The notes: a model not told the origin generated them from the sequence alone. Shown: positions 21,305-63,587, counted from the stretch's first letter. The stretch is 64,000 bases of DNA from an uncultured Clostridia bacterium (GCA_938028975.1 CALHES010000009.1:32792-96791), one strand, 5' to 3'. Made by a program: numbers and translations.

Positions 21305-22609
21305 ATGTTTATTGTTATATTGATTACCAAACTTGTGCAGCGAATTTTAAAAATATTTGGCAAAGGTGCCACAACATTGCCCGGCAGAATAGCTTTGTTT
21401 TTGAAAAAGGACATACTGTTTCACCTTGCAAAAAACGTAAAAGTTATACTTATTACCGGCACAAACGGCAAAACAACGACTGCCCGAATTGTAGAGCAGG
21501 GGCTTAAATCGGCAGGGCTTAGTTATTTTATTAACCGTTCGGGGGCAAATTTAATAACAGGCATTACAACGTCATTTATATCAAATTCCGATTTATTCGG
21601 TAAATGTAAAAAGAATTATGCAATTATTGAGTGTGATGAAAATGCATTAAAAAAGGTAAGCGTTTTTATTGACGCCGATTATTTGGTTGTAACAAATATT
21701 TTTCGAGATCAGCTTGACAGATTCGGTGAAGTTTCAGCAACATTATCCGCCATTAAAACAGGGGCTGAAAACATGAAAAATTGCACTCTTATTTTAAATA
21801 CAGACGATTCGCTTAGTTTCAGTTTGTCCCGATTAAGTAATAATTGGGTTGCTTACGGTGTTGATACGCCTCTTGATTTCGGCGGTAAGGGAGATAATGA
21901 TTATTGCGTTTTTTGCAACTCCAAGTTGGATTTTTATTATAAAACATACAGCCATTTGGGCAATTACCGTTGTTCGCAATGCGGCTTTTTGCGTGTAAGT
22001 CCAAAATATGCCGTTGAAGAGATTATTGAACTTGAAGAAGAATATTCTGCCGTGATTGTAAAAATTAATAATGATTGCAAGTTGTTAAAAATTAATTTGG
22101 GCGGTATTTATAATGTTTATAACGCTTTGGCGGCAGTGGCTGTTTTAAGCGAAATAGGTGTTGAATCTAACGTAATTGAAACAGCTGTTGCCCGGTTTAA
22201 CGGCGCTTTCGGCAGAATGGAAAATTTTGGCGGCTTAAAAATGTTGCTTGTTAAAAATCCGGCGGGCTTTACTCAAACAATGAATTATTTAAAAACCACA
22301 GACGCTGAAAATCTTGTGTTTGTTTTAAATGATAATAAAGCAGACGGTAAGGATGTGTCATGGATATGGGATGCGGAAATTCCCGTTAGTGACAAAGTGA
22401 AAAAAATATATACATTCGGTATCAGAAGCGGCGATATGGCGCTTCGGCTGAAATATGAGGGGTATAATCCGGAAGTAATAAAAGATTATAATCGCTTTTA
22501 TGAGGTGTGCCAAAAAAACAAAACCGTAATAATTCCCACATACACCGCCATGATGGCTTTGCGACCGTATTTTGCGCAAAAATATAAAAAGGAAGCGTTT
22601 TGGAAATGA
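21305..22609 (+). CDS. murT: Lipid II isoglutaminyl synthase, Mur-ligase-like subunit MurT
   Basis: Mur ligase P-loop (ITGTNGKTTT), Cys4 zinc ribbon (CVFCNS...CSQCGF) and C-terminal DUF1727-like region. Immediately followed by gatD. Confidence 0.8.
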   Translation: MFIVILITKLVQRILKIFGKGATTLPGRIALFLKKDILFHLAKNVKVILITGTNGKTTTARIVEQGLKSAGLSYFINRSGANLITGITTSFISNSDLFGKCKKNYAIIECDENALKKVSVFIDADYLVVTNIFRDQLDRFGEVSATLSAIKTGAENMKNCTLILNTDDSLSFSLSRLSNNWVAYGVDTPLDFGGKGDNDYCVFCNSKLDFYYKTYSHLGNYRCSQCGFLRVSPKYAVEEIIELEEEYSAVIVKINNDCKLLKINLGGIYNVYNALAAVAVLSEIGVESNVIETAVARFNGAFGRMENFGGLKMLLVKNPAGFTQTMNYLKTTDAENLVFVLNDNKADGKDVSWIWDAEIPVSDKVKKIYTFGIRSGDMALRLKYEGYNPEVIKDYNRFYEVCQKNKTVIIPTYTAMMALRPYFAQKYKKEAFWK

Positions 22610-23325
22610 TTATAAAAATTGCTCATTTATATCCTGATTTGCTTAATTTGTACGGCGATTCCGGCAATGTTCTTTGCCTTCAAAAAAGGTTAATGTGGCG
22701 TAATATTGAATGTAAAACAGATTTGTTGTATGCCGATTCATATTTTGATTTAAATAATTATGACATTATTTTTATAGGCGGCGGTCAGGATTTTGAACAG
22801 CGATTGGTTTTAAAATCTTTAAGCAAAGGCGTGGCTGATAATTTGCACAGCGCAATAGAAAATGAAGTTTGTGTTCTTGCGGTTTGCGGCGGTTTTCAGC
22901 TTTTGGGCAAATATTATCAAACAAATAAAGGGGATGTGCTGAATTTTACGGGTATTCTTGATTTTTATACGGTTGGCAAATCCAAAAGGCTTATAGGTAA
23001 TTACATATTTAAAACAGAAGAAAAAATAAGAATAATGGGCTTTGAAAATCATTCGGGTAGAACCTATTTAAGCAAAAATTTGAAACCCCTCGGTAAAGTG
23101 TTAATGGGCTGTGGAAATAACGGAAAAGACGGCACGGAAGGCGTTAGATATAAAAATACGTTCGGCACTTATTGCCATGGACCGATTTTGCCGAAAAATT
23201 CTGATTTTGCGGATTTGATTATTGAAAACGCTTTATTGAGAAAGTACGGCAAAGCAGAACTTTCACCAATTGATAACACATTGGAAATCATTGCCCGAAA
23301 GCAGGTTAGGGATTTATATATATAA
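22606..23325 (+). CDS. gatD: Lipid II isoglutaminyl synthase glutaminase subunit GatD (CobB/CobQ-type GATase)
   Basis: N-terminal IAHLYPDLLNLYGDSGN and catalytic Cys in AVCGGFQLLG, typical of GatD. Overlaps the murT stop. Confidence 0.8.
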   Translation: MIIKIAHLYPDLLNLYGDSGNVLCLQKRLMWRNIECKTDLLYADSYFDLNNYDIIFIGGGQDFEQRLVLKSLSKGVADNLHSAIENEVCVLAVCGGFQLLGKYYQTNKGDVLNFTGILDFYTVGKSKRLIGNYIFKTEEKIRIMGFENHSGRTYLSKNLKPLGKVLMGCGNNGKDGTEGVRYKNTFGTYCHGPILPKNSDFADLIIENALLRKYGKAELSPIDNTLEIIARKQVRDLYI

Positions 23326-23352
23326 TTTATAAAAAAATATTCAAATTTTTCT

Positions 23353-23380
23353 TGATTTACGGTTAATCTTGTGTTAAAAT
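23353..23380 (+). promoter_or_regulatory. Candidate sigma-A promoter of rpsB-tsf (TTGATT -35, 16 nt spacer, extended -10 TGtTAAAAT), followed by a ~120-nt leader
   Basis: cTTGATTtacggttaatcttgTGtTAAAAT, read directly from the sequence. The ~120-nt leader before the rpsB RBS (AGGAGG at 23489) could hold the S2 autoregulatory structure. Confidence 0.45.
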
Positions 23381-23502
23381 GTTTCAGCGTGCAAAAGCAA
23401 TACTTGCACATAAACACACACCTTGCTCTTAATCCTAAGGTGCTTAATGCGGGATTTTGCCATAGGGCAGGTGGAGGATTAACCTTAAAGGAGGAAAAAT
23501 CA

Positions 23503-24246
23503 ATGGCAAACGTAGTTTCAATGAAACAACTTTTAGAAGCAGGTGTTCACTTCGGACACCAAACAAGAAGATGGAACCCTAAAATGGCTGAATACATCTT
23601 CACAGAACGTAACGGCATTTACATCATCGACCTTCAAAAAACAGTTAAGAAGCTTGATGAAGCATATATGTTTGTTCGTGATCTTGCTGCAGAAGGCGGC
23701 TCAATTATTTTCGTAGGTACGAAAAAGCAGGCTCAGGAATCTGTTAAAGAAGAAGCAGAACGTTGCGCAATGCCTTATGTTAACGCTCGTTGGCTTGGCG
23801 GTATGCTTACAAACTTCAAAACAATCCGTGGCCGTGTTGCTCGTCTTGCTCAACTTAAAAAAATGCGTGAAGACGGCACTTTTGACCTTCTTCCTAAAAA
23901 AGAAGTTACAGGTCTTGAACTTGAAATCGAAAAGCTTGAAAAGTATCTCGGCGGTATCACAGAAATGAAAAAAGTTCCGGATGCAATGTTTATCGTTGAC
24001 CCAAGAAAAGAAAGAATTGCTGTTTCAGAAGCAATTAAACTCGGTCTTCCAATCGTTGCTATTGTTGATACAAACTGCGACCCTGATGAAATTGATTACG
24101 TTATTCCGGGTAATGATGACGCTATCCGTGCTGTAAAACTTATTGCAGGCGCAATGGCATCTGCAGTTATCGAAGGCCGTGACGGTCAGGATACAGCAGA
24201 AGAAGCTGCTGCAGAAGCAGAAACAGCAGAAGAAACAGCTGAATAA
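23503..24246 (+). CDS. rpsB: 30S ribosomal protein S2
   Basis: [28 protein letters not shown] canonical S2 N-terminus. Acidic C-terminal tail. AGGAGG RBS. Confidence 0.95.
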
Positions 24247-24290
24247 TTTATATTTATAAATAATAACTATATTGGTTTGGAGGATTAAAA

Positions 24291-25229
24291 ATGGCATTTA
24301 CAGCTCAAGACGTAAAAGCGCTTCGTGAGAAGACAGGCGTTGGTATGATGGAATGTAAAAAGGCTCTTACAGAGGCTGACGGCGATATGGACAAGGCAAT
24401 CGACTTCCTTCGTGAAAGAGGTCTTGCCGCAGCACAAAAGAAAGCAACAAGAATTGCTGCTGAAGGCGTTGTTCTTCCTTATTATGACGAACAGGCTAAA
24501 AAAGGCGTAGTTGTTGAAGTTAACTCTGAAACAGACTTTGTTGCTAAAAACGAAAAGTTTATGAACTTTGTTGAAGGCGTTGCTAAAACAATTCTTGCAA
24601 CAAATCCTGCAGATGTTGACGCTCTTAAAGAAGAAAAGTTTGACGGCACAGACAGAACAGTTACAGAAACTCTTAATGACCTTGTTCTTTCAATCGGTGA
24701 AAATATGAAAATACGCCGTTTTGAAAGAATGGACGGCGTTGTTTCAACATACATTCACGGCGGCGGTTCAGTAGGCGTTATGGTTGGCTTTGATGTTGCA
24801 GACGAATCAAAAGCTGCAACAGCAGAATTTGAAGCAATGGGCAAAAACGTTGCAATGCAAATTGCAGCTATGAACCCATCTTATCTTGACGAAGCATCTG
24901 TTCCTGCAGAAGTTGTTGAACATGAAAAAGGCATTCTTGCAGCACAGATGAAAGAAGACCCTAAAATGGCTTCCAAACCTGAAGCAGTTCTTGCAAAAAT
25001 TGCTGCAGGTAAAATGGGCAAGTATTATAAAGAAAACTGCCTCGTAGATCAAGAATTTGTTCGTTCAGACCTTTTCCAAGGTTCTGTTAAAGGCTATGTA
25101 GATTCAGTTGCTAAAGAACTCGGCACAGAAATTAAACTTAACGGCTTCATCAGAATGATGAAAGGCGACGGCCTTGAAAAGAGAGAAGAAAACTTTGCAG
25201 AAGAAATTGCAAAGCAAATCAACGGTTAA
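24291..25229 (+). CDS. tsf: Elongation factor Ts
   Basis: MAFTAQDVKALREKTGVGMMECKKAL UBA-like N-terminus of EF-Ts. Ends ...IAKQING*. Confidence 0.95.
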   Translation: MAFTAQDVKALREKTGVGMMECKKALTEADGDMDKAIDFLRERGLAAAQKKATRIAAEGVVLPYYDEQAKKGVVVEVNSETDFVAKNEKFMNFVEGVAKTILATNPADVDALKEEKFDGTDRTVTETLNDLVLSIGENMKIRRFERMDGVVSTYIHGGGSVGVMVGFDVADESKAATAEFEAMGKNVAMQIAAMNPSYLDEASVPAEVVEHEKGILAAQMKEDPKMASKPEAVLAKIAAGKMGKYYKENCLVDQEFVRSDLFQGSVKGYVDSVAKELGTEIKLNGFIRMMKGDGLEKREENFAEEIAKQING

Positions 25230-25268
25230 TATTCAAGAGCATCTCAAACGAGATGCTCTTTTTTCTTG
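25209..25268 (+). repeat. Direct repeat copy 1: native tsf 3' end (codons AKQING*) plus terminator
   Basis: gcaaagcaaatcaacggttaa...agagcatctcaaacgagatgctcttttttcttg. Recurs at 26424-26490 with about 5 substitutions and the hairpin loop inverted (aaac to attt). Confidence 0.8.
25236..25266 (+). terminator. Rho-independent terminator of rpsB-tsf
   Basis: agagcatctc-aaac-gagatgctct followed by TTTTTT. Confidence 0.75.
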
Positions 25269-25314
25269 AATGTAGGGTTATTGTGTGATAGTATTACATT
25301 AGGAGGAGATATTT

Positions 25315-25881
25315 ATGTCTGAATATTTTGTTGATTTTGAAAATGTTAATTCAGCCGGAATCAGTGGCATTTCTAAATTAGACCTTAATGAAAACGATGA
25401 TTTTCACATTTTTTATAGTGAAAAAGCAAATTCGATAACAATTGATTTGCATAAAGAATTAGATAAAATTGATGCGAAAGTGAATTTTATTAAAGTAAAG
25501 GTCGGTACAGCCAATGCTTTGGATTTTCAGCTTGCAACATATCTCGGTCATTGTATAGCAGAGAATGGATCCAAAAAATATTTCATTATATCTAATGACA
25601 AGGGATATGATGCGGTTTGCGAATTTTGGAAGGGTAGAAATGTTGTTATAAAAAGAATTGATTCAATTAACTCAATTGACAGAAACAAAGATGAAGTAGC
25701 AAAGGTGCTAACAGGAATAGTCAGCGAAAAAGAAGCACTGAAAGTGTACAATATAATTTGCAATTACAAAACAAAAATGGGCATACATAACAATTTAGTT
25801 AAAGCTTTTCCGGGCAATAACAATAAAAAAGCTTCACAGATTTATAATGCTATAAAACCATTAATCAAGGATAAAAAATAA
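25315..25881 (+). CDS. NYN-domain (PIN-like, LabA/DUF88-type) predicted nuclease with a C-terminal OST-HTH-like extension
   Basis: FVDFENV (D..EN), VKVGTANALDFQLATYLG (G.NA.D) and FIISNDKGYD (S.D..D) match the three NYN acidic motifs. Reads more AT-rich than the flanking core genes. Confidence 0.6.
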   Translation: MSEYFVDFENVNSAGISGISKLDLNENDDFHIFYSEKANSITIDLHKELDKIDAKVNFIKVKVGTANALDFQLATYLGHCIAENGSKKYFIISNDKGYDAVCEFWKGRNVVIKRIDSINSIDRNKDEVAKVLTGIVSEKEALKVYNIICNYKTKMGIHNNLVKAFPGNNNKKASQIYNAIKPLIKDKK

Positions 25882-26112
25882 GTTTTTAAACTGTCAACAG
25901 GATACACATATTTATTACATTATTTTTACGTTTATTATGCAGAATATGAAGCATCGGTTGGCGTGGATGGTGAATTGTTGGTAGGAAGTTTACCGGTTAA
26001 ACAATTAAAATTAGTTCAAGCGTGGGCTGCTATTCACGAAGAAGAATTATATAAGGCATGGAATAAGGCTGTAAGACAAGAACCTTTTGGAAAAATAGAG
26101 CCTTTAAGATAA
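25882..26112 (+). pseudogene. DUF4160 family gene remnant: only the C-terminal ~65 codons, no start codon
   Basis: Translation ...YYAEYEASVGVDGELLVGSLPVKQLKLVQAWAAIHEEELYKAWNKAVRQEPFGKIEPLR* matches the conserved C-terminal half of DUF4160 proteins. The N-terminal ~30 codons (MP...DHxPPHFH) are absent. It lies in the same frame as the NYN gene and directly after its TAA stop. Confidence 0.55.
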
Positions 26113-26129
26113 TTAGAAAGTGTGATTTT

Positions 26130-26423
26130 ATGTATATTTTAGATGGTATTGCTTATGCCGGTAGCAAAACACCTGAATTGAAAGTGTCCGGTGTAAGACC
26201 TATGGATAATTATTTGTTATGGGTTAGATTTAACAACGGCGAAGCAAAAGTGTTTGATTTTAAGCCGATTTTGGAAAAACCGGCTTTTGTTCCGCTAAAA
26301 GACGTTGATGTATTCAAAAGCGTTTATATTGATTATGGTATTCCGGTATGGAATGACGGCGATATTGATATTTCTCCGGAATACCTTTACGAAAACGGAC
26401 AAAATGAAAGAATAACAGCATAA
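26130..26423 (+). CDS. DUF2442 family protein, usual partner of DUF4160 in two-gene modules
   Basis: 97 aa: MYILDGIAYAGSKTPELKVSGVRPMDNYLLWVRFNNGEAKVFDF is the DUF2442 fold signature. Sits immediately 3' of the DUF4160 remnant. Confidence 0.65.
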   Translation: MYILDGIAYAGSKTPELKVSGVRPMDNYLLWVRFNNGEAKVFDFKPILEKPAFVPLKDVDVFKSVYIDYGIPVWNDGDIDISPEYLYENGQNERITA

Positions 26424-26490
26424 TCGCAAAGCAAATCAACGGCTAATTAAACATTTAAGAGCATCTCATTTGAGATGCTCTTTTTTCTTG
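26424..26490 (+). repeat. Direct repeat copy 2: orphan copy of the tsf 3' end (atc gca aag caa atc aac ggc taa = IAKQING*) plus terminator hairpin with an inverted loop
   Basis: atcgcaaagcaaatcaacggctaa...agagcatctcatttgagatgctcttttttcttg. Same last-7-codon string as EF-Ts but not attached to any tsf body. Functions as the terminator for the DUF2442 gene. Confidence 0.8.
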
Positions 26491-26532
26491 CCTGAATTTG
26501 ATATATGTGTTATTATTTGCTTGGGTGGTAAT

Positions 26533-26967
26533 ATGGTAAGAGAAGCAAATATTAACGATTTTGACGGATTAAGCAAATTGTATACTCATTTGCACAATAA
26601 CAAGATTATGCCGAAAACAGAGAATAATGAAAAAATATGGAATGAAATTATTGCAGATAAAAATCATCATATTATTGTGGCAGAGGAAAACGGTGAAATT
26701 GTTTCTTCTTGTGTTTGTGTTATTATTCCAAATCTTACTCATAATCAACAACCTTATGCTTTAATTGAAAATGTTGTTACTCATAAGGACTTCAGAAAGA
26801 AAGGGCTCGCTTCACAATGCCTCTCTTTTGCAAAGCAAATCGCAGTTGAAAATAATTGCTATAAAATGATGTTGCTTACCGGTTCAAAAAAGATGTCCAC
26901 ACATAAATTTTATAGAAAAAACGGTTACAACAGCATAGAAAAAACCGGCTATATTCAACGACTTTGA
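26533..26967 (+). CDS. GNAT family N-acetyltransferase
   Basis: Acetyl-CoA binding motif HKDFRKKGLASQCL (Q/RxxGxG/A-like) and overall ~145 aa GNAT fold. ATG at 26533, not the track's upstream 26470. Confidence 0.75.
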   Translation: MVREANINDFDGLSKLYTHLHNNKIMPKTENNEKIWNEIIADKNHHIIVAEENGEIVSSCVCVIIPNLTHNQQPYALIENVVTHKDFRKKGLASQCLSFAKQIAVENNCYKMMLLTGSKKMSTHKFYRKNGYNSIEKTGYIQRL

Positions 26968-27066
26968 TTTACTTTGTTGTTTAATTATTGTGGGTAATTT
27001 TATTGTCTTGTAAATTTAGTTTATATATGTTAAACTTAATGTGTAATAATGAAATGAGGTTAATTT

Positions 27067-27516
27067 ATGATTTGCAAAAATTGTTCTAACAATATTGATG
27101 ATAATGTTGCTTTTTGCCCATACTGCGGAACTCCTACTAATTCGGCACAAAATAACGGGCAAAACCCAAATGTATATTATAATCCGAATACACAGCAGAG
27201 TAATCAATATAATTCATATAATCAGCAGGGCACACAACAACCGACATATCAGCAGGCTAATATTAACTCTGCACCTGCCAAGGATAAACTTGTTGCAGGA
27301 TTACTTGCTATTTTTCTTGGTTCATTAGGTATTCATAAGTTTTATCTCGGCTATACAAAAAGTGCCGTTATTATGCTTTTAGTGTCGCTTCTTACCTTTG
27401 GTATCGGTGCTTTTGTTATGGAAGTTATCGGCCTTATTGAGGGAATACTTTATTTAACAAAGTCTGATGAAGAATTTTATCAAACTTATGTTCAAAATGA
27501 AAAAGAATGGTTTTAG
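27067..27516 (+). CDS. Zinc-ribbon + TM2-domain membrane protein with a Q/N-rich linker
   Basis: N-terminal CKNC...CPYCG zinc ribbon. ~60-aa N/Q/Y-rich low-complexity segment. C-terminal KLVAGLLAIFLGSLGIHKFYLGYT is the TM2 domain signature. Confidence 0.7.
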   Translation: MICKNCSNNIDDNVAFCPYCGTPTNSAQNNGQNPNVYYNPNTQQSNQYNSYNQQGTQQPTYQQANINSAPAKDKLVAGLLAIFLGSLGIHKFYLGYTKSAVIMLLVSLLTFGIGAFVMEVIGLIEGILYLTKSDEEFYQTYVQNEKEWF

Positions 27517-27540
27517 AAGTAAAAATATTTTCAAAATATA

Positions 27541-27575
27541 AAAAGGCTGAAGAATTTGTTCTTCAGCCTTCTTGT
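27541..27575. terminator. Bidirectional terminator between the converging TM2 gene (+) and ferredoxin-like gene (-)
   Basis: aaaaggctgaagaa-tttg-ttcttcagccttctt. Confidence 0.55.
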
Positions 27576-28282
27576 TATAATTTTTTGCCGTCAACAGAAA
27601 TTGTAACAACTTGCCACGGAATGAACTTTCCGCTTTTTTGAAGTGCAGACTTTGCCGCATTTTCAAGTCTGCCGCAGCAGGGAACTTCCATTCTTATAAT
27701 TGTAACGTTTTTTATATTGTTGGTTTTAATTATAGATTCAAGTTTTTCGCTGTAATCTGTATCGTCAAGTTTCGGGCAGCCGATAATTGTAATTTTACCT
27801 TTCATAAATTCATTGTGTAAATTAGCGTAAGCATAAGCTGTGCAATCTGCCGCAATCAGTAAGTCTGCACCGTCAAAATACGGTGCGTTAACAGGTACAA
27901 GCTTGATTTGGCATGGCCATTGACCCAGTTGTGAAACAGGTGCAACAGTATTGTCAATATTTAAATTACCGCTGTTTTTATTAAAAGTGCGCAAAGCACT
28001 GCCCGGACAACCGTGGTTAATGTGTTGATGAGAAATTTTTTCTTTTTTCTTCATATTTTCTTCAACTGCTTTTTTGTCATATTCTGCAGCTTCACGCTCA
28101 ACAAAAGTAATTGCTCCCGTAGGACATGTCGGCAAACAGTCGCCAAGTCCGTCGCAGTAATCATCACGCAAAAGTTTTGCTTTGCCGTCAACCATGCCTA
28201 TTGCACCCTCATGGCAAGCATTTGCGCATGCACCGCAGCCGTTGCATTTGTCTTCATCTATTTGAATAATTCTTCTAATCAT
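27575..28282 (-). CDS. 2x[4Fe-4S] ferredoxin-domain protein with a second Cys-rich C-terminal domain (hydrogenase/NuoB-small-subunit-like GCP...CC motifs). Function unknown.
   Basis: CNGCGACANAC and CDGLGDCLPTCP dicluster motifs at the N-terminus, then HGCPGS, WPCQ, AADCTAY, IIGCPKLDD and VPCCGRL. Divergently paired with the Crp/Fnr gene. Confidence 0.6.
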   Translation of the reverse strand: MIRRIIQIDEDKCNGCGACANACHEGAIGMVDGKAKLLRDDYCDGLGDCLPTCPTGAITFVEREAAEYDKKAVEENMKKKEKISHQHINHGCPGSALRTFNKNSGNLNIDNTVAPVSQLGQWPCQIKLVPVNAPYFDGADLLIAADCTAYAYANLHNEFMKGKITIIGCPKLDDTDYSEKLESIIKTNNIKNVTIIRMEVPCCGRLENAAKSALQKSGKFIPWQVVTISVDGKKL

Positions 28283-28387
28283 ATTTAAAACTCCTTTTTG
28301 TTTATGTTATTTGCTTGTGTGGCATCATTATAGTATAATTGAGTTGTTAAATATGTTGGAATTGCAACAAAATACGGTGATTTTATA

Positions 28388-29056
28388 ATGAAATATATGG
28401 AAATTTTAAATAATTGTGTGCTTTTTAATGGGTTAACAGAAGATGAAATTAATATGTTTTTTTCAAGTGTAAGCCATGGCATCAGGGCATATAAAAAGGG
28501 TGAGTTTATTATGCATGCCGGTGATAAAACCGAAAGTCTTGGACTTTTACTAAACGGCAGTGCCCTTGTTGTTCAGGAGGATGTTTGGGGAAACAGAAAC
28601 ATTATTACAAATTTAAAATGTTGTGATTTTTTCGGCGAGGTGTTTGCAAGCCTTGGAAATATACCGTTGAATGTAAGCGTGGAAGCAAATGAAGATTGCC
28701 AAGTTTTATTTATAAATATGAGCAGTGTGTTTTCCTCAGATTACTTGTGCAAAAGCAAAATTAATTATAATTTAATTAAAATACTTTCAAGAAAAATTTT
28801 GGTATATAATGACAAAGTAACACATTTGAGTAAGCGAAAAACAAAAGATAAAATTTTATCATACCTTTCTGCCGAATCTGTTAGATGCGGTTCTTTTGAA
28901 TTTGATATTCCTTTCAATCGCCGTGAACTTGCCGATTATTTGTGTGTGGAACGTTCGGCAATGACGGTGGAACTTTTAAATTTACAAAAAGCCGGAATTA
29001 TAAAAATAAATAAAAATCATTTTAAATTGCTTAATGTTAATGCCGACAGGCAGTAA
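28388..29056 (+). CDS. Crp/Fnr-family transcriptional regulator (cNMP-binding domain + C-terminal HTH)
   Basis: cNMP-binding beta-roll (GEFIMHAGDKTESLGLLLNGSALV) and HTH (RRELADYLCVERSAMTVELLNLQKAGII). No N-terminal Cys cluster, so not a classical O2-sensing FNR. Confidence 0.8.
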   Translation: MKYMEILNNCVLFNGLTEDEINMFFSSVSHGIRAYKKGEFIMHAGDKTESLGLLLNGSALVVQEDVWGNRNIITNLKCCDFFGEVFASLGNIPLNVSVEANEDCQVLFINMSSVFSSDYLCKSKINYNLIKILSRKILVYNDKVTHLSKRKTKDKILSYLSAESVRCGSFEFDIPFNRRELADYLCVERSAMTVELLNLQKAGIIKINKNHFKLLNVNADRQ

Positions 29057-29062
29057 AAATAA

Positions 29063-29105
29063 AAGCAGGCTACGGCTGTTTCATTGCCTTAACCTGCTTT
29101 TTCTT
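29063..29105. terminator. Bidirectional terminator between the converging Crp/Fnr gene (+) and PHP phosphatase gene (-)
   Basis: aaagcaggctacggctgtttcattgccttaacctgcttttt: stem aagcagg/cctgctt with a long loop, flanked by A-run and T-run. Confidence 0.4.
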
Positions 29106-29885
29106 TTATTTGTGATTCCAAGGAATTAATTTTACTTCCTTTTGCGGAATTATATTTAATTTTTTCAAATAATCGTTTGCCTTTTTAAGATTTATTTTGT
29201 CATCATAAACGTTTGGATTATGAGCGTCTAAGCCGATAACAACCTCGTTGCCTGTTTTTGCGGCAATTTCCCAAAAGTCTTTGTTAGGATAATTCCTTTT
29301 GTCTGTAAATCCCAAAAAGTTAAATTCAATGGGAATGTCAATTTCATTCAAGGCTGTAATCATTTGTTCCATTTTTGCTTTGTAAATACATTTGTCGCCT
29401 GTAAAATTAATTAAATCAGGGTGTGCAATGTAAGTAAATTCACCGCTTTTTGCCGCTTCGATAACCTGCGAAACATATTTGCAAAGTGTTTCTTCGGAAT
29501 CTGTTTGAGTGCCTGAATATTTGGCATAATCTTCATATTCATTATCAACAAAATGTTGACCCAAAATTATAAAATCATAGTGAAAACTTTTTAAATATTC
29601 CAATTCTTTTTTAATTAATTTTGGGTAGTATTCAACTTCAAATCCTAATTTAATTTCTATTTTATCTTTGTATTTTTCTTTCAGCTTCATCACGCTTGAA
29701 ACATAATCTTTTGTTTTATCAAGTTCCATTCTGAATGTGCTTGTATGACCGTTTGGAAAAATATAAGGTGCGTGGTCGGAAAATCCTATTTCATTATATC
29801 CGTTTTTTATTGCCTTAATAACATATTCTTCGTCGGTACCCTTTGCGTGGTGGCATCTGAATGTGTGGTTGTGATAATTGTACAT
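29106..29885 (-). CDS. PHP-family phosphoesterase (histidinol-phosphatase HisK-like)
   Basis: N-terminal HNHTFRCHHAKG and SDHAPY metal-binding motifs of PHP histidinol phosphatases. 259 aa. The gene abuts the galT stop on the same strand. Confidence 0.75.
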   Translation of the reverse strand: MYNYHNHTFRCHHAKGTDEEYVIKAIKNGYNEIGFSDHAPYIFPNGHTSTFRMELDKTKDYVSSVMKLKEKYKDKIEIKLGFEVEYYPKLIKKELEYLKSFHYDFIILGQHFVDNEYEDYAKYSGTQTDSEETLCKYVSQVIEAAKSGEFTYIAHPDLINFTGDKCIYKAKMEQMITALNEIDIPIEFNFLGFTDKRNYPNKDFWEIAAKTGNEVVIGLDAHNPNVYDDKINLKKANDYLKKLNIIPQKEVKLIPWNHK

Positions 29886-31373
29886 TTATTTAACGCTTTC
29901 AATAAATTTAATAAATCCGGCTTTGCCGTTTTCATCTCTTGAATAAACACCGCATTGCTCTAAAATAGATGCAAAAACAGTGCCTATTTCTTTTTGCAAA
30001 ATTTCGTGGCAGTTATCTGCTGTAATGTCGTATTTATTCATTATCATTTCTGCCCATTCTTTATGGCTTGCAATAGACGGAATTTCGCCGATATCTTTTC
30101 CGTTTACCATAGCGTCCGCCAATTCAGCCATTTCATTTTTAAGTCTGCTTGGCAAAACCGCAAGACCCATAACTTCTATTAATCCTATGTTTTCCTTTTT
30201 AATGTGGTGGTATTCGGGGTGTGGATGATAAAATCCTAACGGGCATTCATCTGTTGTAATGTTATTTCTTAAAACAAGGTCAAATTCAAATTCGCCGTTT
30301 CTCATTCTTGCAATAGGTGTTATTGTGTTGTGCGGCTCATCGTTTGTATTTGCGTAAATGAATGACTCTTCATCTGTGTAGTTGCGCCAAGCGTTAAGAA
30401 TTTTATCTGCTAAATCAACAAGTCTTTCCTTGCTTTTTCCGCTTATTCTTATAACACTCATAGGCCATTTTACTATGCCGGCGCTAACATCTTCAAATCC
30501 GTTAAACGTTACTTTTGTTTCAACAGGTGCTTTTGCCATTGCAAATTCGTAATTGCCGCCTTGAAAATGTTCGTGGGTTAAAATTGAACCGCCTACTATC
30601 GGCAAGTCGGCATTTGAACCTATAAAGTAATGCGGAAATTTTTCAATAAAATCAAGCAGTTTTGCAAATGCACTGCGGTCTATTTTCATCGGTGTGTGTT
30701 CTGCATTAAAAACAATGCAATGTTCGTTGTAATAAACATACGGCGAATATTGAATAAAGAATTTTTCACCGCCCAGTTCTGTAGGAATAATCCTGTGGTT
30801 TTGGCGTGCAGGGTGGTTGATTCTGCCGGCATAACCTTCATTTTCTTTACAAAGCAGGCATTTGGGGTAAGATGTGGTTTTCATTTTTAAAGCCGCTGCA
30901 ATGGCTTTTGGGTCTTTTTCCGGCTTTGAAAGATTTATTGTAATATCAATGTCGCCGTAGTCCGTTTTTGTAATCCATTTAATGTCGTTTTTAATTCTGT
31001 ATCGGCGAATATAATCGCTGTCATTGCTTAATTTATAATAGTAGTCTGTTGCTTCTTTTGGTGAGGATTCGTAACGCTTGTAAAATTCGGAAATAACTTC
31101 GCTTGGCTTTGGAGTAAGCAAACCCATAATTTTTGTATCAAACAAATCACGGTAAACAACACTGTCTTCGCACAGCCCGTTTTGTATTGCAAAATCTAAA
31201 ATTGATGATAAAATTTCCTGCAAGTCGGTGCTTGTTGCTTCACAGTCTTCAAAAGAATCTAAATTTAACGCTTCGCAAATTCTGTTAATTGCCCAAATTT
31301 CATCTTCTTTTTCAATCATTTGGTTTGATATTGCATAGTTTGTTAACGATTTAACGGCTGAATAAATGTTCAT
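29886..31373 (-). CDS. galT: UDP-glucose--hexose-1-phosphate uridylyltransferase (GalT, type 2 / Gram-positive form)
   Basis: ~495 aa. Conserved FENxG.AG...H.H(F)Q-type core (GGSILTHEHFQGG). Size and architecture match family-2 GalT. Confidence 0.8.
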   Translation of the reverse strand: MNIYSAVKSLTNYAISNQMIEKEDEIWAINRICEALNLDSFEDCEATSTDLQEILSSILDFAIQNGLCEDSVVYRDLFDTKIMGLLTPKPSEVISEFYKRYESSPKEATDYYYKLSNDSDYIRRYRIKNDIKWITKTDYGDIDITINLSKPEKDPKAIAAALKMKTTSYPKCLLCKENEGYAGRINHPARQNHRIIPTELGGEKFFIQYSPYVYYNEHCIVFNAEHTPMKIDRSAFAKLLDFIEKFPHYFIGSNADLPIVGGSILTHEHFQGGNYEFAMAKAPVETKVTFNGFEDVSAGIVKWPMSVIRISGKSKERLVDLADKILNAWRNYTDEESFIYANTNDEPHNTITPIARMRNGEFEFDLVLRNNITTDECPLGFYHPHPEYHHIKKENIGLIEVMGLAVLPSRLKNEMAELADAMVNGKDIGEIPSIASHKEWAEMIMNKYDITADNCHEILQKEIGTVFASILEQCGVYSRDENGKAGFIKFIESVK

Positions 31374-31517
31374 GTTTTTTCCTCTTTCCGAAATTTATAT
31401 TTTATATTATAATATTAGGACTTTGTTTTTTCAATATTTAAAACAATATTTGCTCATTTTTATTTGCTTGAAAAAATGTGAATGTTATGTTATCATTGTT
31501 TGGCTGTGCTTTGCACA

Positions 31518-31543
31518 AAATGTTTGCTATAAATGTTTGCTAT
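31518..31543. repeat. Tandem direct repeat 2 x 13 bp (aaatgtttgctat) in the galT / NSS-transporter divergent intergenic region
   Basis: caaaATGTTTGCTATaaATGTTTGCTATaaagg, 10 nt upstream of the transporter RBS/ATG. Candidate operator. Confidence 0.4.
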
Positions 31544-31558
31544 AAAGGATAGTTTATT

Positions 31559-33040
31559 ATGGAAAGAGAAAAGTTTGGCTCAAGGCTTGGGTTTATTTTG
31601 GTTTCAGCAGGCTGTGCCGTGGGAATAGGAAATGTTTGGAAATTTCCTTATATTTGCGGAATGTACGGCGGTGCCGCATTCATTGTAATGTATTTAATAT
31701 TCTTGGTTTTGCTTGGTTTTCCCATTTTGGTTTCTGAATTTGCAGTAGGCAGAGGCAGCCGGTTGGGTATGGGCAGAGCATTTGAAAAGTTAGAACCAAA
31801 GGGTACAAAATGGCATCGTTTAAAATGGATTAGTATTATCGGTTGTTTTCTTTTGATGTCCTTTTACACAATGGTTGCCGGTTGGATGCTTTATTATGCG
31901 TATTTGGAATTAACCGGTAAACTTGCCGGCCTTGATGTTAACGGCGTTGGCGATATGTTTGGCACAATGCTTTCTCAACCTCAAACTATGGGGCTTTGGG
32001 CATTCATTGCTATTGTTATTTCTTTTGGTATTTGCGCTCTCGGTGTGCGAAACGGCGTTGAAAAAGTAACCAAGGTTATGATGAGTTTACTTATAATATT
32101 AATGCTTGCGCTTGCAATTAATTCTGCAACATTGCCAAACGCTGGGGAGGGGTATAAATTCTATCTTGTTCCCGATTTTAAGGCTGTTGCCGGGCAGGGA
32201 TTCGGCACTGCTGTGTTTGCCGCTATGAGCCATGCTTTCTTTACTCTCAGCTTGGGCATAGGCGCTATGGAAATATTCGGCAGTTACCTTGATAAAAAGA
32301 AAAAGCTGGCGGGTGAGGCTGTAAGCGTTATGGTGCTTGATACTTTTGTTGCCTTAACAGCAGGTTTTATTATTATTCCCGCATGCTTCGCTTTTGGTGT
32401 TCAACCCGATTCGGGACCATCTCTTTTGTTTATAACATTGCCTAATTTGTTTAATCAAATGAAAGGCGGCAGAGTTTGGGGAACAATGTTCTTTGTATTT
32501 ATGTCTTTTGCGGCTCTGTCTACAGTTGTTGCTGTTTTTGAGAATTTAATTGCAACATTTATTGATATGAAAGGTTGGAGCAGAAAGAAATCTGTTTTTG
32601 TAAATTTCATAATAGTAACCTTAATTTCGGCACCTGCTGTTTTAGGCTATAATTTGTGGACAAAGGTTCAGCCATTGGGTGCAGGAACAAGTATAATGGA
32701 TTTGGAAGACTTTATAGTTTCTTATAACCTGTTGCCTCTCGGCAGTTTGCTGTTTTTAATGTTTTGCGTTCGTAAAAACGGCTGGGGATTTGAAAACTTT
32801 TTAAAAGAGGCAAATACCGGCACAGGCTTGGAGTTACCCAAGTGGGCAAGAGTTTATATGCAATATGTTTTGCCGTTAATAGTAACCGTTGTTTACCTTA
32901 AAGGTTATTACGATTTCTTTGCAGGTCAGATTTTGGCGGTAAGAATCGGATGGATGATTTTTGCTCTTATTTTATTATTGGCAATTTTCGGCGTTTCCTT
33001 GTTTACCGGTAAAAAATCAATGAAAAAACCTAATAATTAA
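31559..33040 (+). CDS. Sodium-dependent transporter, neurotransmitter:sodium symporter (SNF/NSS) family
   Basis: GFILVSAGCAVGIGNVWKFPY NSS signature. ~12 predicted TM segments. Confidence 0.85.
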   Translation: MEREKFGSRLGFILVSAGCAVGIGNVWKFPYICGMYGGAAFIVMYLIFLVLLGFPILVSEFAVGRGSRLGMGRAFEKLEPKGTKWHRLKWISIIGCFLLMSFYTMVAGWMLYYAYLELTGKLAGLDVNGVGDMFGTMLSQPQTMGLWAFIAIVISFGICALGVRNGVEKVTKVMMSLLIILMLALAINSATLPNAGEGYKFYLVPDFKAVAGQGFGTAVFAAMSHAFFTLSLGIGAMEIFGSYLDKKKKLAGEAVSVMVLDTFVALTAGFIIIPACFAFGVQPDSGPSLLFITLPNLFNQMKGGRVWGTMFFVFMSFAALSTVVAVFENLIATFIDMKGWSRKKSVFVNFIIVTLISAPAVLGYNLWTKVQPLGAGTSIMDLEDFIVSYNLLPLGSLLFLMFCVRKNGWGFENFLKEANTGTGLELPKWARVYMQYVLPLIVTVVYLKGYYDFFAGQILAVRIGWMIFALILLLAIFGVSLFTGKKSMKKPNN

Positions 33041-33048
33041 CTGTTAAT

Positions 33049-33112
33049 GTGGGCGTTTATGGCATTATGTACAAAATTTTATGCATAATTCTGTTAAACG
33101 CCCTTTTTGTTT
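33049..33112 (+). terminator. Probable terminator downstream of the NSS transporter gene
   Basis: gggcgttta...(35-nt loop)...taaacgccc followed by tttttgttttt. The long loop lowers confidence. Confidence 0.35.
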
Positions 33113-33177
33113 TTGTATTTACATTGCCATTTTACTTTGTTATAATTGTTATATAGCAAAATTTGGGAGTAAAAATT

Positions 33178-35508
33178 ATGAAAAAAAGAGTTTTGGCTGT
33201 TTTTTTATCACTTGTAATTTGCATTGGAGCATTTGCGGGTTTCGGTTCAAATGCTGTTTTTGCGGCTTCGGCTACATCGGGCAGCTGCGGCACAGGTGTA
33301 ACATACAGCTATAATAAAGACACAAAGGTTTTAACAATCAGTGGTTCGGGCAGCATTAAGGATTACGGTCAAACAACTCTTAACCATGTTCCTTGGTATG
33401 ATTTTAAAACCGAGTGCGTTAAAGTTGTTATTAATGAGGGTATAACCGGCATAGGCGACAGAGCGTTTTATAATATGTCTGTTTTAACAAGCGTTACATT
33501 GCCGTCAACACTTAAAACAATAAGCGATTATTCGTTTGCCGAATGTCCTTTGCTGAATAATGTTACATTACCGTCAAACCTTCAAACAATTCGTTCATAT
33601 GCGTTTCAAAAATGTACTTCCCTTACTAAAATTGTTATTCCCGACAGTGTAACAAGTTTTGGTAAAACAAGACTGGGTTCTATTGAAACGGGTTATGTTT
33701 TTGCAGATTGCACAAATCTTAAATCGGTTACATTCGGCACAGGTTTGTCTTCAACGGGTAATAGCTGCTTCAGAGACAGCGGCGTTTCAACAGTTACCTT
33801 ATCCGATTCCATAACAGAAATATCAACTTATTCTTTCTTTAATTGTAAAATTCAAACAATAGAATTGCCTCAAAGAGTTGTGAAAATCGGAACCAGGTCA
33901 TTTGCCAATAATGGCTTAATTTCAAAGGTTACGGTTAATAACAGCGAATGCACTTTTGAAGGCTTGATAAATGAGGACCCGTTTAACGGCAGTCAGCAAA
34001 GTTTGGTGTTTTACGGTCATTCACAGTCAACTACACAAACATATGCAAACGAGCATAATTACGGATTTGTGTCATTAGACCCGTGCGCTCATGATAATCT
34101 CAGCGAGGTAATAACATTAGAGCCTACCTGTACCGAAAAAGGCTCTAAAAATATTGTTTGTGATGATTGCGGCGCAGTAGTAAGAACAGAAGAAATTGAC
34201 GCTTTAGGTCATGATTTTAAAACCTTTAATACTGCCGATATGACAGAGGCGGACGGTCATATTTACGAATATCAGGAATGCAGCAGATGCGGACAGGAGA
34301 ATTGCATTTATACACATAATGAATGGGTAGATGGCAATTACGACGAAACATACACGGGAAAATGTACTACGGTTTTGCGTGTAACAAAAACCTGCAAAAT
34401 TTGCGGAAAAACAGACAGTCAGTTTACTACAGGCCATAAAATGGGTAAGGTTACTTCCGAAGTACCGGCAACTTGCACAGAAGCCGGAAGTCAAACCGGA
34501 ACATGTTCAAGATGCGGCGAAACCTTCACGCAGGAGGTTGCGGCTTTGGGTCATAAAAATGTTGTAACTCAATCCTATGATACCGATGACGGACATACTT
34601 ACACTTATTACAAATGCTCTGTTTGCAACGAGGAATCAACCGTTTGCACTCATAATGAATGGGTAGAAGGTTATTACACAGAATTTGAAATTTCGCCTGT
34701 TTCCTGCACTGCAAACGGAACAGTTGAAAGAACATGTACTGTTTGCAAGAAAGTGGAAGATGAAACAATTTTAATGACCGGTCATGATTATGATGAGGGC
34801 GTTGTAACAAAAGAACCGGATTGCACAAACACAGGTACAAAAACACGTACCTGCAAAAATTGCGGCAATACCTTGGATGTTCCTATTGCAAAATTAGGCC
34901 ATAATTATGAAGAATCCGAAGTCTTGAAAGAGCCAACATGCACAAGCGTGGGAACAGGAACAAGAACATGTACACGGTGTGGAGATAAGGTTTCTTACAC
35001 TCTTAACGCATTGGGACATGATATTTCAAATGCACAGGATTATAAGTACATAAAAGAACCTACTTGTATTGATAACGGCACAGCATCAGGCACTTGTGCT
35101 AATTGCGGCGAGGTTGTTGAGGAAACCGTAAATGCTTTGGGTCATGATTTGGATACGGAAAATCAAACGGTTGAAACTGCACCTACCTGCACGGAAAGCG
35201 GCACGGCTACGGTTGTTTGCAAGCGTTGCGGCTCAAACGAAACTGTTATTTTGGATGCATTGGGTCATAACTACACATTTACAAAGAAGAGCGACAGCGG
35301 CGAAACATTTATTTATAACTGCACAAGATGCGGCGGCGAAACGATATATCTTCAAAGAGTTCTTGTGCCTTTGTTTAAACCGAACATTAACAAAAATGTT
35401 GCTGATTTAGATAATGGTTACAGGCTTGATATTAACAAAGACGGCGTTATCAATATGCGTGATTATTCGTTGATTAACGGATATACTCAAATTAAAAGCG
35501 AGAACTAA
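33178..35508 (+). CDS. Secreted BspA-type leucine-rich-repeat protein with >=7 tandem Cys3-His mini-domains and a C-terminal type I dockerin
   Basis: Signal peptide MKKRVLAVFLSLVICIGAFAGFGSNAVFA. LRR units (ITxIGxxAFxxCxxLTSVTLPSxL). Repeats of [E/A]PTCTxxGxxxxxCxxCGxxxxxxxxALGHxY. C-terminal DINKDGVINMRDYSLINGY is a dockerin Ca-binding loop. Confidence 0.75.
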   Translation: MKKRVLAVFLSLVICIGAFAGFGSNAVFAASATSGSCGTGVTYSYNKDTKVLTISGSGSIKDYGQTTLNHVPWYDFKTECVKVVINEGITGIGDRAFYNMSVLTSVTLPSTLKTISDYSFAECPLLNNVTLPSNLQTIRSYAFQKCTSLTKIVIPDSVTSFGKTRLGSIETGYVFADCTNLKSVTFGTGLSSTGNSCFRDSGVSTVTLSDSITEISTYSFFNCKIQTIELPQRVVKIGTRSFANNGLISKVTVNNSECTFEGLINEDPFNGSQQSLVFYGHSQSTTQTYANEHNYGFVSLDPCAHDNLSEVITLEPTCTEKGSKNIVCDDCGAVVRTEEIDALGHDFKTFNTADMTEADGHIYEYQECSRCGQENCIYTHNEWVDGNYDETYTGKCTTVLRVTKTCKICGKTDSQFTTGHKMGKVTSEVPATCTEAGSQTGTCSRCGETFTQEVAALGHKNVVTQSYDTDDGHTYTYYKCSVCNEESTVCTHNEWVEGYYTEFEISPVSCTANGTVERTCTVCKKVEDETILMTGHDYDEGVVTKEPDCTNTGTKTRTCKNCGNTLDVPIAKLGHNYEESEVLKEPTCTSVGTGTRTCTRCGDKVSYTLNALGHDISNAQDYKYIKEPTCIDNGTASGTCANCGEVVEETVNALGHDLDTENQTVETAPTCTESGTATVVCKRCGSNETVILDALGHNYTFTKKSDSGETFIYNCTRCGGETIYLQRVLVPLFKPNINKNVADLDNGYRLDINKDGVINMRDYSLINGYTQIKSEN

Positions 35509-35693
35509 ATAAAATATTTTGGGCATACGGCATAAAGGTGTTTAATTATTCTTTAAGCGGTGTGCCCTTGTTTTTTTATCGGTATCTTTAACAAATATCG
35601 ACTGTTAAATTTAGGGAGTTTTTTCATCTTAAACTATTTACTTTAAACTTAATTTATATTATTATATATAATATAAAAAAACGGAGGTCTGAT

Positions 35694-36407
35694 ATGAGCA
35701 CTCAATATAAACGCATTTTGTTAAAATTAAGCGGAGAGGTTCTTGCCGGTTCAAAGGGAACAGGCATTGATAATGAAACAGTTGTAAAAATTTGTAAATC
35801 AGTTAAAAAAGTTGCCGATTTAGGAGTTCAGGTTGGCATTGTAGTCGGCGGCGGAAACTTTTGGCGCGGCAGAACAAGCGAGGGTATGGACCGTGCAAGG
35901 GCAGACCATATCGGCATGCTTGCAACGGCAATGAATTCACTTGCACTTTGCGATGCACTTGAGCAGCTTGGCGCAGATGTAAGAGTTCAAACAGCTATTG
36001 AAATGAGGCAAATTGCCGAACCGTACATCAGAAATAAAGCAATTCGTCATTTTGAAAAAGGCAGAATTGTTATTTTCGGTTGCGGCACAGGTTCACCTTT
36101 CTTTTCAACAGACACTGCTGCCGCTCTTCGCAGCGTTGAAATTAATGCAGATGCTTTGCTTAAAGCAACTAATGTTGACGGCGTTTATGATAAAGACCCG
36201 AATAAATATGACGATGCGGTTAAGTTTGATACCGTTTCATTTAAAGAAGTTATTAACAGAGATTTAAAGGTTATGGATTCAACCGCATTTTCACTTTGTA
36301 AAGATAACGATATGTCAATCGTTGTGTTTAACCTTGAGGAAGACCCTGAAAATGTTGTTAAAGCCGTTATGGGCGAACCTATCGGTACAGTTGTAAGTAA
36401 TAATTAA
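35694..36407 (+). CDS. pyrH: Uridylate kinase
   Basis: [11 protein letters not shown]...[12 protein letters not shown] canonical UMP kinase. Confidence 0.95.
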
Positions 36408-36421
36408 CGGAGGTTTTAGTA

Positions 36422-36976
36422 ATGGAAACTGTATTTAATAAAACGAAAGAAAAAATGGAAAAATGCCTTGATTCTTTAAACAGAGATTATAAGGCTGTTC
36501 GTGCAGGTCGTGCAAACCCTGCTATTTTAGACAGAGTAACGGTTGATTATTACGGCGTACCTACTCCGTTAAATCAAATGGCTGCAATCAGCGTTCCGGA
36601 ACCGAGAATGCTTATGATTCAACCGTGGGATGCAAGCACACTTAAAGAAATCGAAAAGGCAATTAACACTGCCGAAATCGGAATTAATCCAAGTAACGAC
36701 GGTAAAGTTATTCGTCTTGCTTTCCCTGCATTAACGGAAGAACGCAGAAAAGAACTTGTTAAAGATATTTCTAAGCGTGCAGAAGAAGGCAAGGTTGCAG
36801 TTCGCAACGTTCGCCGTGACGCTATGGATGATATTAAAAAGCTAAAAAAAGATAACCAGATTACAGAGGATGACCAAAAAGACGGAGAGAAAAAGCTTCA
36901 AGATATAACAGACAGTTATATTAAACAAATTGAAGAAATGGAAAAAGCAAAAGAGCAGGAAGTTCTTTCAATTTAA
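36422..36976 (+). CDS. frr: Ribosome recycling factor
   Basis: 184 aa. VRAGRANPAILDRVTVDYYG signature. Confidence 0.95.
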   Translation: METVFNKTKEKMEKCLDSLNRDYKAVRAGRANPAILDRVTVDYYGVPTPLNQMAAISVPEPRMLMIQPWDASTLKEIEKAINTAEIGINPSNDGKVIRLAFPALTEERRKELVKDISKRAEEGKVAVRNVRRDAMDDIKKLKKDNQITEDDQKDGEKKLQDITDSYIKQIEEMEKAKEQEVLSI

Positions 36977-63567: not shown

Positions 63568-63587
63568 TAATTTTTGTTTATTTAACA

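Follow-up and report, generated by a model that had tools for sequence, protein, structure and literature searches.

Introduction

Site-specific integration of mobile elements, their decay to cis-mobilizable elements (CIMEs) and tandem accretion at a shared site form a scheme that has been reviewed (PMC5704250). This paper describes a locus with such properties in a stretch of 64,000 nucleotides from an uncultured Clostridia bacterium (GCA_938028975.1, CALHES010000009.1:32792-96791; this whole stretch is called the window, and positions are counted from its first nucleotide), in which an integrase-less cassette of 1,217 bp is found at the 3' end of tsf, the gene encoding elongation factor Ts (EF-Ts), at the left end of an interval of some 10.5 kb that separates tsf from pyrH. 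In Streptococcus thermophilus, the integrative and conjugative elements (ICEs) ICESt1 and ICESt3 and the related CIMEs occupy the fda gene at its 3' end, whereas the insertion sites of Tn916 and Tn1549 are numerous and AT-rich. The gene order rpsB-tsf-pyrH-frr-uppS-cdsA-dxr-rseP is conserved in Bacillus and Clostridium, and a preliminary description of the window had taken the complete tsf-pyrH interval for a recently acquired accessory island inside this conserved operon. The analysis presented here makes it likely that the interval is a layered, long-lived variable region and not one island.

The tsf locus resembles ICESt1, ICESt3 and the CIMEs in several respects, since insertion is into the 3' end of a housekeeping gene that is rebuilt by the element, integrase-less remnants keep both attL and attR, tandem arrays are formed by re-use of the attachment (att) site, and the same remnant occurs with or without a neighbouring integrase element. 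For the stretch 25226-26442, attL- and attR-type cores were found from which the empty site of contig L081 is reconstructed exactly, genes for integration and transfer have been lost, and a related integrase element occupies the same att site, in tandem with the cassette in contigs L101, L102 and L119 and without it in L111. The stretch thus matches the CIME pattern, and an indirect sign of possible excision or transfer along with the neighbouring element is the identity of 99.4-99.8% between copies in different species contexts. Unlike for ICESt1 and ICESt3, the target is tsf and the hosts are uncultured gut Clostridia, and no conjugation module was seen in the element ends available, so that the elements may be ICEs, integrative and mobilizable elements (IMEs) or of another kind. 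A literature search combining tsf with attB, integrase or ICE retrieved no paper naming tsf as a target.

The integrase elements at tsf share with Tn916 and Tn1549 the combination of a Phage_int_SAM_3 domain with a catalytic domain, a Tn916-type Xis, and the location of xis-int at one end of the element, whereas they differ from these many-site elements in that one 17-nt coding core recurs across 9 contigs that represent three clades. As in integron arrays, short tandem cassettes are parted by a repeated site, and a number of these cassettes carry a toxin-antitoxin pair at their end, namely MNT-HepT, Phd-ParE or perhaps DUF4160/DUF2442. An integron was nevertheless rejected, because no integrase gene was found from tsf to pyrH, the window has no attI and the repeat is a coding 3' end rather than a folded attC; moreover, the adjacent hairpins are ordinary terminators that differ between sites. 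Compared with the cluster in Bacillus and Clostridium, both halves are intact in the ancestral order and orientation, but they lie 2 to more than 10 kb apart in 57 of the 58 species sampled.

Materials and Methods

The window derives from an uncultured gut bacterium related to 'Eubacterium sp. CAG:251', 'Firmicutes bacterium CAG:341' and Eubacterium coprostanoligenes. Genes were assigned from a map of open reading frames (ORFs) combined with Pfam searches. Conspecific contigs were collected by exact-protein look-ups with Tsf and with the TM2 protein encoded downstream of it, yielding 14 distinct contigs with a 100% identical Tsf. Related species were collected in a Tsf-anchored scan with one genome per species, yielding 80 loci from the E. 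coprostanoligenes / CAG:251 / CAG:341 radiation and from more distant Acutalibacteraceae and Oscillospiraceae. The window proteins were placed on these 80 loci by tblastn, and the 58 loci that extend for 3 kb or more past tsf were regarded as informative. Numbers preceded by L designate the contigs and loci used for comparison.

Results

The cassette and its borders

The end of tsf and the cassette that follows it comprise the following features.

24291-25229, plus strand: tsf (EF-Ts), 312 amino acids (aa); Pfam EF_TS; protein shared at 100% identity by more than 20 metagenomic contigs
25209-25225, plus strand: attL-type core GCAAAGCAAATCAACGG, left crossover region; exact repeat of 26426-26442
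25226-26442, plus strand: strain-specific, integrase-less cassette of 1,217 bp (CIME-like), bringing a tsf stop codon and terminator
25235-25268, plus strand: cassette-borne intrinsic terminator for tsf, consisting of a hairpin (25235-25260) and a T-run; -19.8 kcal/mol, z -6.2
25315-25881, plus strand: PIN7-domain protein, 188 aa; Pfam PF18475, E 3e-28
25915-26112, plus strand: DUF4160 remnant, C-terminal part; Pfam PF13711, profile positions 17-65 of 65
26130-26423, plus strand: DUF2442 protein, 97 aa; Pfam PF10387
26426-26446, plus strand: attR-type core and the native tsf stop codon, displaced to this position (GCAAAGCAAATCAACGGCTAA); in repeat families D4 and D7
26457-26490, plus strand: native tsf terminator, now 3' of the cassette; z -4.9, identical to L081

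The 17-nt core GCAAAGCAAATCAACGG consists of the final codons of tsf and is present in exactly two copies in the window, against 0.04 expected by chance. BLASTN aligned an empty-site stretch of 69 bp to both window 25200-25268 and window 26422-26490, and joining the left side of the first core copy to the right side of the second yields the empty site of L081. To the left of the first copy lies tsf, and to its right element-derived sequence, in which the last Gly codon is GGT instead of GGC, the TAA stop codon is kept and another spacer follows. From the second core onward the sequence is that of the L081 empty site, including the native stop codon, the terminator and the promoter of the GNAT acetyltransferase gene. 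The cassette-borne tsf terminator has the stem of the native copy with a different loop and spacer, and as the two terminators are similar, the repeats extend about 65 bp past the 17-nt core at 88-92% identity. The cassette is missing from all conspecific contigs listed, in which the GNAT ORF starts 23 nt after tsf. The junction sequences hence argue for insertion of a 1,217-bp unit by a crossover inside the final tsf codons. As judged from this comparison, the part of the interval that is recent in this strain amounts to only these 1,217 bp, with the genes for PIN7, the DUF4160 remnant and DUF2442.

The coding content of the cassette is restricted to PIN7, the N-terminally truncated DUF4160 and DUF2442, and DUF4160 is in the same truncated state in all copies of the cassette. 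No genes for integration or transfer were found in the cassette, and no integrase gene anywhere between tsf and pyrH; outside this interval no search was made for an integrase of the L101 type. PADLOC returned no defence-system match for PIN7, DUF4160 or DUF2442, and PIN7, DUF2442 and TM2 had no match to a named NCBIfam family.

The exact PIN7 and DUF2442 proteins were each found on 15 contigs. In the contexts of other species the cassette is 99.4-99.8% identical, which is far above the identity of the host genes and therefore points to recent spread between species. Moreover, in L120 the tsf of another species is joined directly to the PIN7 cassette, which provides an independent junction. 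In L104 (1-421), PIN7 is preceded by a wholly different, GC-richer upstream sequence, joined at the equivalent of window 25302, just before the ribosome-binding site; judging from this contig, there is at least one further context, apart from the tsf site, in which the PIN7 gene travels.

Integrase elements at the tsf core

Contigs L101, L102 and L119 have the order xis-int-core-cassette-core and encode an identical PIN7 protein; the element directly upstream of the cassette encodes a 62-aa Tn916-type Xis (PF09035) and a 428-aa tyrosine integrase. An integrase element of the L101 type (99.65% identity over 4 kb) ends in the core in L111, where no cassette is present, and the flank after this core matches the native tsf-downstream sequence of L012, L023, L028 and L041. 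Integrase element and cassette are thus separable units that are able to sit in tandem. The stretch from int to the core contains three GTTGCGTAAA(A/G) direct repeats, and a conserved right arm, CTCGAAACC...AAAAACTTC, precedes the core. This right arm was also encountered without an integrase, namely in L004 (twice), L008 and the conspecific L087.

Protein searches detected relatives of the integrase with 74% identity (L112) and 67% identity (L113-L118), and 60-170 nt further on these are followed by AAACTTC, the core and TAA, in a degenerate form in L115. Synonymous variants of the core match the tsf genes of differing host species, and in L112 and L113 the core sequence runs on into LRR-pyrH-frr-uppS-cdsA-dxr. 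The same 17-nt coding core was found in all 9 contigs examined, which belong to three integrase clades and indicate that the integrase elements at tsf would be strictly site-specific. The idea that the terminator hairpin belongs to the att site was rejected, since the att copies have completely different hairpins but a constant 17-nt core.

The solved structures closest to the integrase are PDB 6EN0, 6EMY and 6EMZ, labelled 'Int protein' (E 4e-23), which we take to be Tn1549 Int. A scan of metagenome contigs with the integrase gave only three distant, irrelevant matches. The Pfam lists of the L084 and L111 element ends (at most 10 kb each) contained no relaxase or VirB4, and no search was aimed at these proteins. 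In L012, from another species, a 301-aa XerC/D-like tyrosine recombinase is encoded about 240 nt downstream of tsf (11181-12086, minus strand); it is only 24% identical to the L101 integrase.

Repeated use of the site

Further exact copies of the 18-nt tsf end are located 3' of the gene in L004 (where there are two of them), L008 and L016, and bound cassettes with NUDIX/HAD/transglutaminase, metallophosphatase/HAD/MNT-HepT and HIT/Phd-ParE genes. Larger elements are present at the same position in strains of the window's own species, as L084 (10940-20939) and L086 (3452-13451) carry a large element directly after the tsf stop codon, with its own tsf terminator and genes for ParA, ParB, a SpaA/TQ adhesin of 1,263 aa and a protein with a MutS_I domain that exceeds 1,800 aa. 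In the conspecific L087, a transglutaminase gene, the right arm and the core are followed by YD-repeat genes that replace GNAT-TM2, and L118 combines an integrase element with the left end of an L084-type element behind it. The hotspot for gene acquisition that the preliminary description had proposed accordingly exists, but it is narrow and coincides with the 3' end of tsf.

Genes of toxin-antitoxin systems were found repeatedly at the tsf site, either where a cassette ends on the right or beside xis-int (L004 15094-15758, L016 12120-12730, L028 13873-14498 and L113 264-620). Among them are MNT-HepT, present in two species, Phd-ParE, and a PemK gene that precedes xis.

Gene content between tsf and pyrH

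The interval from the end of tsf (25229) to the start of pyrH (35694) measures 10,464 bp and holds about 11 genes, so that the extent given in the preliminary description is exact. The remaining genes and terminators of the interval, together with rpsB, are listed below.

23503-24246, plus strand: rpsB (ribosomal protein S2); Pfam Ribosomal_S2, E 1e-102; 247 aa in conspecific contigs
26533-26967, plus strand: GNAT acetyltransferase, species core; Pfam; start probably ATG 26533
27067-27516, plus strand: Zn-ribbon/TM2 membrane protein, backbone gene; Pfam
27540-27573, both strands: bidirectional terminator between TM2 and Fer4; 15-bp stem, detected on each strand
27575-28282, minus strand: 2x[4Fe-4S] ferredoxin-domain protein (Fer4); Pfam
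28388-29056, plus strand: Crp/Fnr-family regulator, divergent from the Fer4 gene; Pfam cNMP_binding and HTH_Crp_2
29061-29100, no strand assigned: terminator hairpin between convergent Crp and PHP; -21.3 kcal/mol, z -4.9
29106-29885, minus strand: PHP / HisJ-family phosphatase, backbone gene; Pfam PHP, NCBIfam TIGR01856 above cut-off
29886-31373, minus strand: galT (type-2 UDP-glucose--hexose-1-phosphate uridylyltransferase), backbone gene; NCBIfam TIGR01239 (676 bits, cut-off 650)
31559-33040, plus strand: SNF/NSS sodium-dependent transporter; Pfam, NCBIfam
33163-35508, plus strand: BspA-type LRR surface protein; Pfam LRR_5
35521-35577, plus strand: terminator 3' of the LRR gene; -26.1 kcal/mol, z -4.7, then a T-run

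The common layout in conspecific contigs is tsf, a spacer of 23 nt, and GNAT-TM2-Fer4-Crp-PHP-galT-NSS-LRR-pyrH. BLASTN identity to conspecific sequence was 99.70% over window 20000-25268 and 99.59% over 26422-36444, and the GNAT-to-LRR part, representing 9,247 of the 10,464 bp, is present at flank-level identity in all conspecific contigs listed that reach the region. By this comparison the 9,247-bp block is species core, apparently inherited along with its flanks. The common Fer4 allele is one residue off the Fer4 of the window, the exact look-up of which was without a match.

In the wider set, pyrH is next to tsf in a single informative locus (L056, 136 nt apart) and separated from it in 57 of 58, and a split of tsf and pyrH is hence the normal state of the lineage. 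The distance is 2.2-9.5 kb in 8 of the 58 loci and about 9.7 kb in L017 and L071, and no pyrH was found within at least 9.5 kb of tsf in 28 of them, including Anaerotruncus sp. G3 and E. coprostanoligenes ATCC 51222. The three species nearest in Tsf identity (L001, L002 and L028) have the order tsf-[variable]-TM2-[variable]-PHP-galT-BNR-FeADH-LRR, with pyrH next in L001. Their backbone proteins (TM2, PHP-galT and LRR) are 39-83% identical at the amino acid level to those of the window, galT reaching 81-83% and PHP 65-68%. TM2 is found in the same position in these three species and in L076, where it adjoins tsf; GNAT directly follows tsf or the core in L037 and L008; the Fer4-Crp pair lies 2.2 kb downstream of tsf in L078; and the LRR-pyrH adjacency was seen in at least ten loci (L001, L017, L025-27, L037, L071, L076, L112 and L113). 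The comparison with relatives therefore showed most of the gap content to be shared at uniform composition, and of the single recent island that had been proposed there remains the variation in content between related species, since 9,247 of the 10,464 bp are old and conspecific-wide.

The composition of the interval gives a similar picture. The GC content, the GC content at third codon positions (GC3) and the codon-choice scores of the gap genes are all inside the spread of the 58 window genes, with codon log-likelihood z values of -0.8 to +1.4 and GC3 z values of -1.6 to +2.0, and the lowest GC among them is that of PIN7 (z = -2.4). The AT-richness noticed by eye in the left part is weakly true (GC 0.31-0.35 at 25-30 kb against about 0.37 for the window), whereas the profiles, once computed, revealed ordinary gap genes and no atypical composition that would fit an island. 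Scans of 20-40 kb for tRNA genes and Rfam families gave no match, and thus no tRNA or riboswitch accounts for the hotspot. At the outer borders of 25230-35693 no integrase, tRNA or att repeats were found, the only repeats being those that bound the 1.2-kb cassette at the left end.

Pfam and NCBIfam supported the gene content that had been read from the sequence, with two amendments: the presumed NYN nuclease is a PIN7 (PIN-like) protein, and the dockerin assigned to the surface protein is dropped, as the C-terminal match is below threshold (E 0.0039, 17.8 bits against a cut-off of 22.9). The bidirectional terminators reported between genes were recovered as two convergent pairs with A-/T-run hairpins (27540-27573 and 29061-29100). 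Hairpins are also present 3' of tsf, NSS and LRR, and most units are parted by hairpin terminators.

The NSS transporter had no homologue in the 80 related loci, and among the sampled species it is found only in that of the window. It has the highest GC3 of the gap genes (z +2.0), and its slot is filled by BNR-repeat and Fe-ADH genes in sister species; it may represent a species-level replacement.

The conspecific L085 carries a 3.8-kb insertion between GNAT and TM2, encoding a 1,059-aa Peptidase_S8/LRR_5 protein and two small ORFs. It is bounded by a 132-bp direct repeat, 97% identical (11441-11571 and 15362-15493, corresponding to window 26949-27080), which spans the stretch from the end of GNAT to the start codon of TM2, with the TM2 promoter between them; no integrase is apparent there.

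Flank identities are mosaic. Tsf is 95-96% identical to that of L001, L002 and L028, and MurT/GatD 48-57% (L001 and L028; MurT 48-49%), while L029 and L046 show 74-77% for MurT/GatD but 83% for Tsf (compared with window 21305-25229). These conflicting identities suggest that, close to the integration site, either tsf or murT-gatD has undergone recombination or been replaced by a xenologue. A longer Tsf of 371 aa, compared with 312 aa in the window, with about 59 additional internal residues, is encoded in the relatives of E. coprostanoligenes type (L033, L035, L038-L042, L044, L055, L056, L065, L071 and L076), and still keeps the AKQING C-terminus and the att core. Many independent Logan contigs of the window's species (L087-L090 and L094-L100) start inside rpsB, a few tens of bases apart at most, at about window 23500-23570, and in the sister species L028 and L001 an insertion of 0.7-3.9 kb separates gatD from rpsB; the region immediately 5' of rpsB may be a second variable point. 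Elsewhere in the window, in which nearly all genes are on the plus strand, the minus-strand ORFs 61969-62274 and 63454-63798 have codon-choice z values of -3.3 and -4.5 and are probably not genes.

Transcription units on either side

The right border of the interval comprises two features.

35637-35665, plus strand: pyrH promoter candidate TTTACT-N17-TATTAT, with the -35 box at 35637-35642 and the -10 box at 35660-35665
35694-36976, plus strand: pyrH-frr (pyrH 35694-36407, AA_kinase); Pfam

The pyrH-frr genes open the run pyrH-frr-uppS-cdsA-dxr-rseP-ispG, and the promoter candidate lies past the LRR terminator. Within the 130 nt upstream of pyrH, CTATTTACTTTA, a spacer and ATATATTAWTATATA are kept in ten species, whichever gene is upstream, and in L056, where tsf is adjacent, the motif directly follows the tsf terminator. 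The promoter candidate put forward in the preliminary description was thus essentially right. With a terminator of its own for tsf and a promoter of its own for pyrH, the gap falls between two transcription units. As the motif is kept in L056, pyrH-frr was already a separate unit before any insertion and no new promoter was needed. The description of an acquisition inside a conserved operon is therefore overstated, since tsf terminator and conserved pyrH promoter are present even in L056; similarly, to the question whether pyrH-frr had kept co-regulation with rpsB-tsf, the promoter, predicted by motif conservation, suggests that none was lost, as it would predate the insertions.

Discussion

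The layered organization proposed here would consist of three parts. The oldest is the tsf/pyrH junction itself, which would ancestrally have lain between two units and long been open, holding resident genes: LRR by pyrH, GNAT and TM2 by tsf, PHP-galT in the middle, and in this species Fer4-Crp and NSS. In the second, active layer, the last 17-21 nt of tsf (GCAAAGCARATYAAYGG and TAA) would serve as the attachment site for elements with Xis and a tyrosine integrase, each of which would supply a replacement tsf 3' end, stop codon and terminator and push the native end to its far side; re-use of the site would then lead to tandem arrays and integrase-less remnants. The third layer, specific to this strain, would be the integrase-less 1,217-bp cassette between tsf and GNAT, bounded by two cores. 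Direct observation covers the repeats and the empty site, the occurrence of the cassette in other genomes and the location of integrases beside the same core. The integrase presumably catalyses the recombination, and movement of the cassette would depend on an integrase provided in cis or in trans.

Several alternatives were weighed against this layered organization. That the whole 10.5 kb is one recent accessory island which broke a conserved operon appears highly improbable, even though its genes are of mixed orientation and unrelated function, a slight drop in GC is seen over 25-30 kb, the gap content varies between species, and L046, the locus closest by MurT/GatD identity, is without these genes within 9.3 kb of tsf. 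Against such an event stand the presence of 9,247 bp at flank-level identity in all conspecific contigs listed, the backbone common to sister species at 39-83% aa identity, the ordinary codon usage and GC3, and outer borders without att repeats, integrase or tRNA; moreover, the tsf/pyrH split is the rule in the family and the pyrH promoter is ancestral. The arrangement of tsf, cassette and GNAT could also be an assembly chimera at the repeated core and terminator, as the window probably comes from a metagenome assembly and both junctions occur together in no conspecific contig listed. Such an artefact is barely credible, however, because both junctions are exactly at the core, with the attL/attR logic of a genuine insertion, and because an exact repeat of 17-21 nt within a longer one of 88-92% identity is short for a mis-join; in addition, L120, an independent contig of another species, has the same tsf/cassette junction, and the exact PIN7 protein is found on four contigs of 50 kb to 1 Mb.

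The use of an integrase has its own competitor, in which the cassette repeats and other insertions result from homologous (Campbell-type) recombination of circular or linear foreign DNA sharing a short tsf-end homology, without a dedicated integrase. The repeats that run about 65 bp beyond the core at 88-92% identity would be expected from such a process, as would the L085 insertion, with its 132-bp repeat and no integrase nearby, and the lack of an integrase in the cassette itself. It is nevertheless considered unlikely, given three integrase clades (99%, 74% and 67%) with Xis that are each located 60-170 nt from the same core, the conserved AAACTTC boundary and repeated arm-like motifs before the core, and a crossover that is always in the same 17 nt though the flanking terminators differ wholly by site. 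Some observations weigh against integrase-mediated insertion at tsf and the layered organization built on it. No contig spans a full element from tsf (attL) to int (attR), so that the link between integrase and att site is purely comparative, and neither an excised circle nor an attP was seen. Relic att cores with at most 3 mismatches are absent from 26,500-35,700, an extra match at 61549, with 3 mismatches, being far off; nothing thus indicates that the old 9.2 kb entered via the tsf site. The L085 insertion may point to a different route for some insertions, and the mosaic flank identities make it uncertain which species is truly the closest.

The layered organization can be extended to a wider and doubtful reading, in which the tsf 3' end would be a platform served in trans, where site-specific Tn916-type integrases time and again deposit and reshuffle short cassettes without an integrase of their own, where these cassettes, often with toxin-antitoxin or nuclease genes, move between species, where decayed cargo becomes domesticated over long times, and where the family-wide gap, including metabolic genes such as galT, would be a fossil record of these events.

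These data do not alter the general picture of how elements of this kind function. A large gap in a 'universal' gene cluster is, however, not in itself evidence for a recent island, as the gap described here appears to hold mostly old, vertically inherited content between independent transcription units. The tsf core provides a well-defined marker with which strains can be typed and mobile elements located in these genomes, and the integrase with its site is a candidate site-specific integrase/att pair for organisms without genetic tools. The truly mobile part of the interval would be small and its anatomy precise, consisting of a 17-nt site and an Xis/integrase family in abundant, uncultured gut Clostridia.

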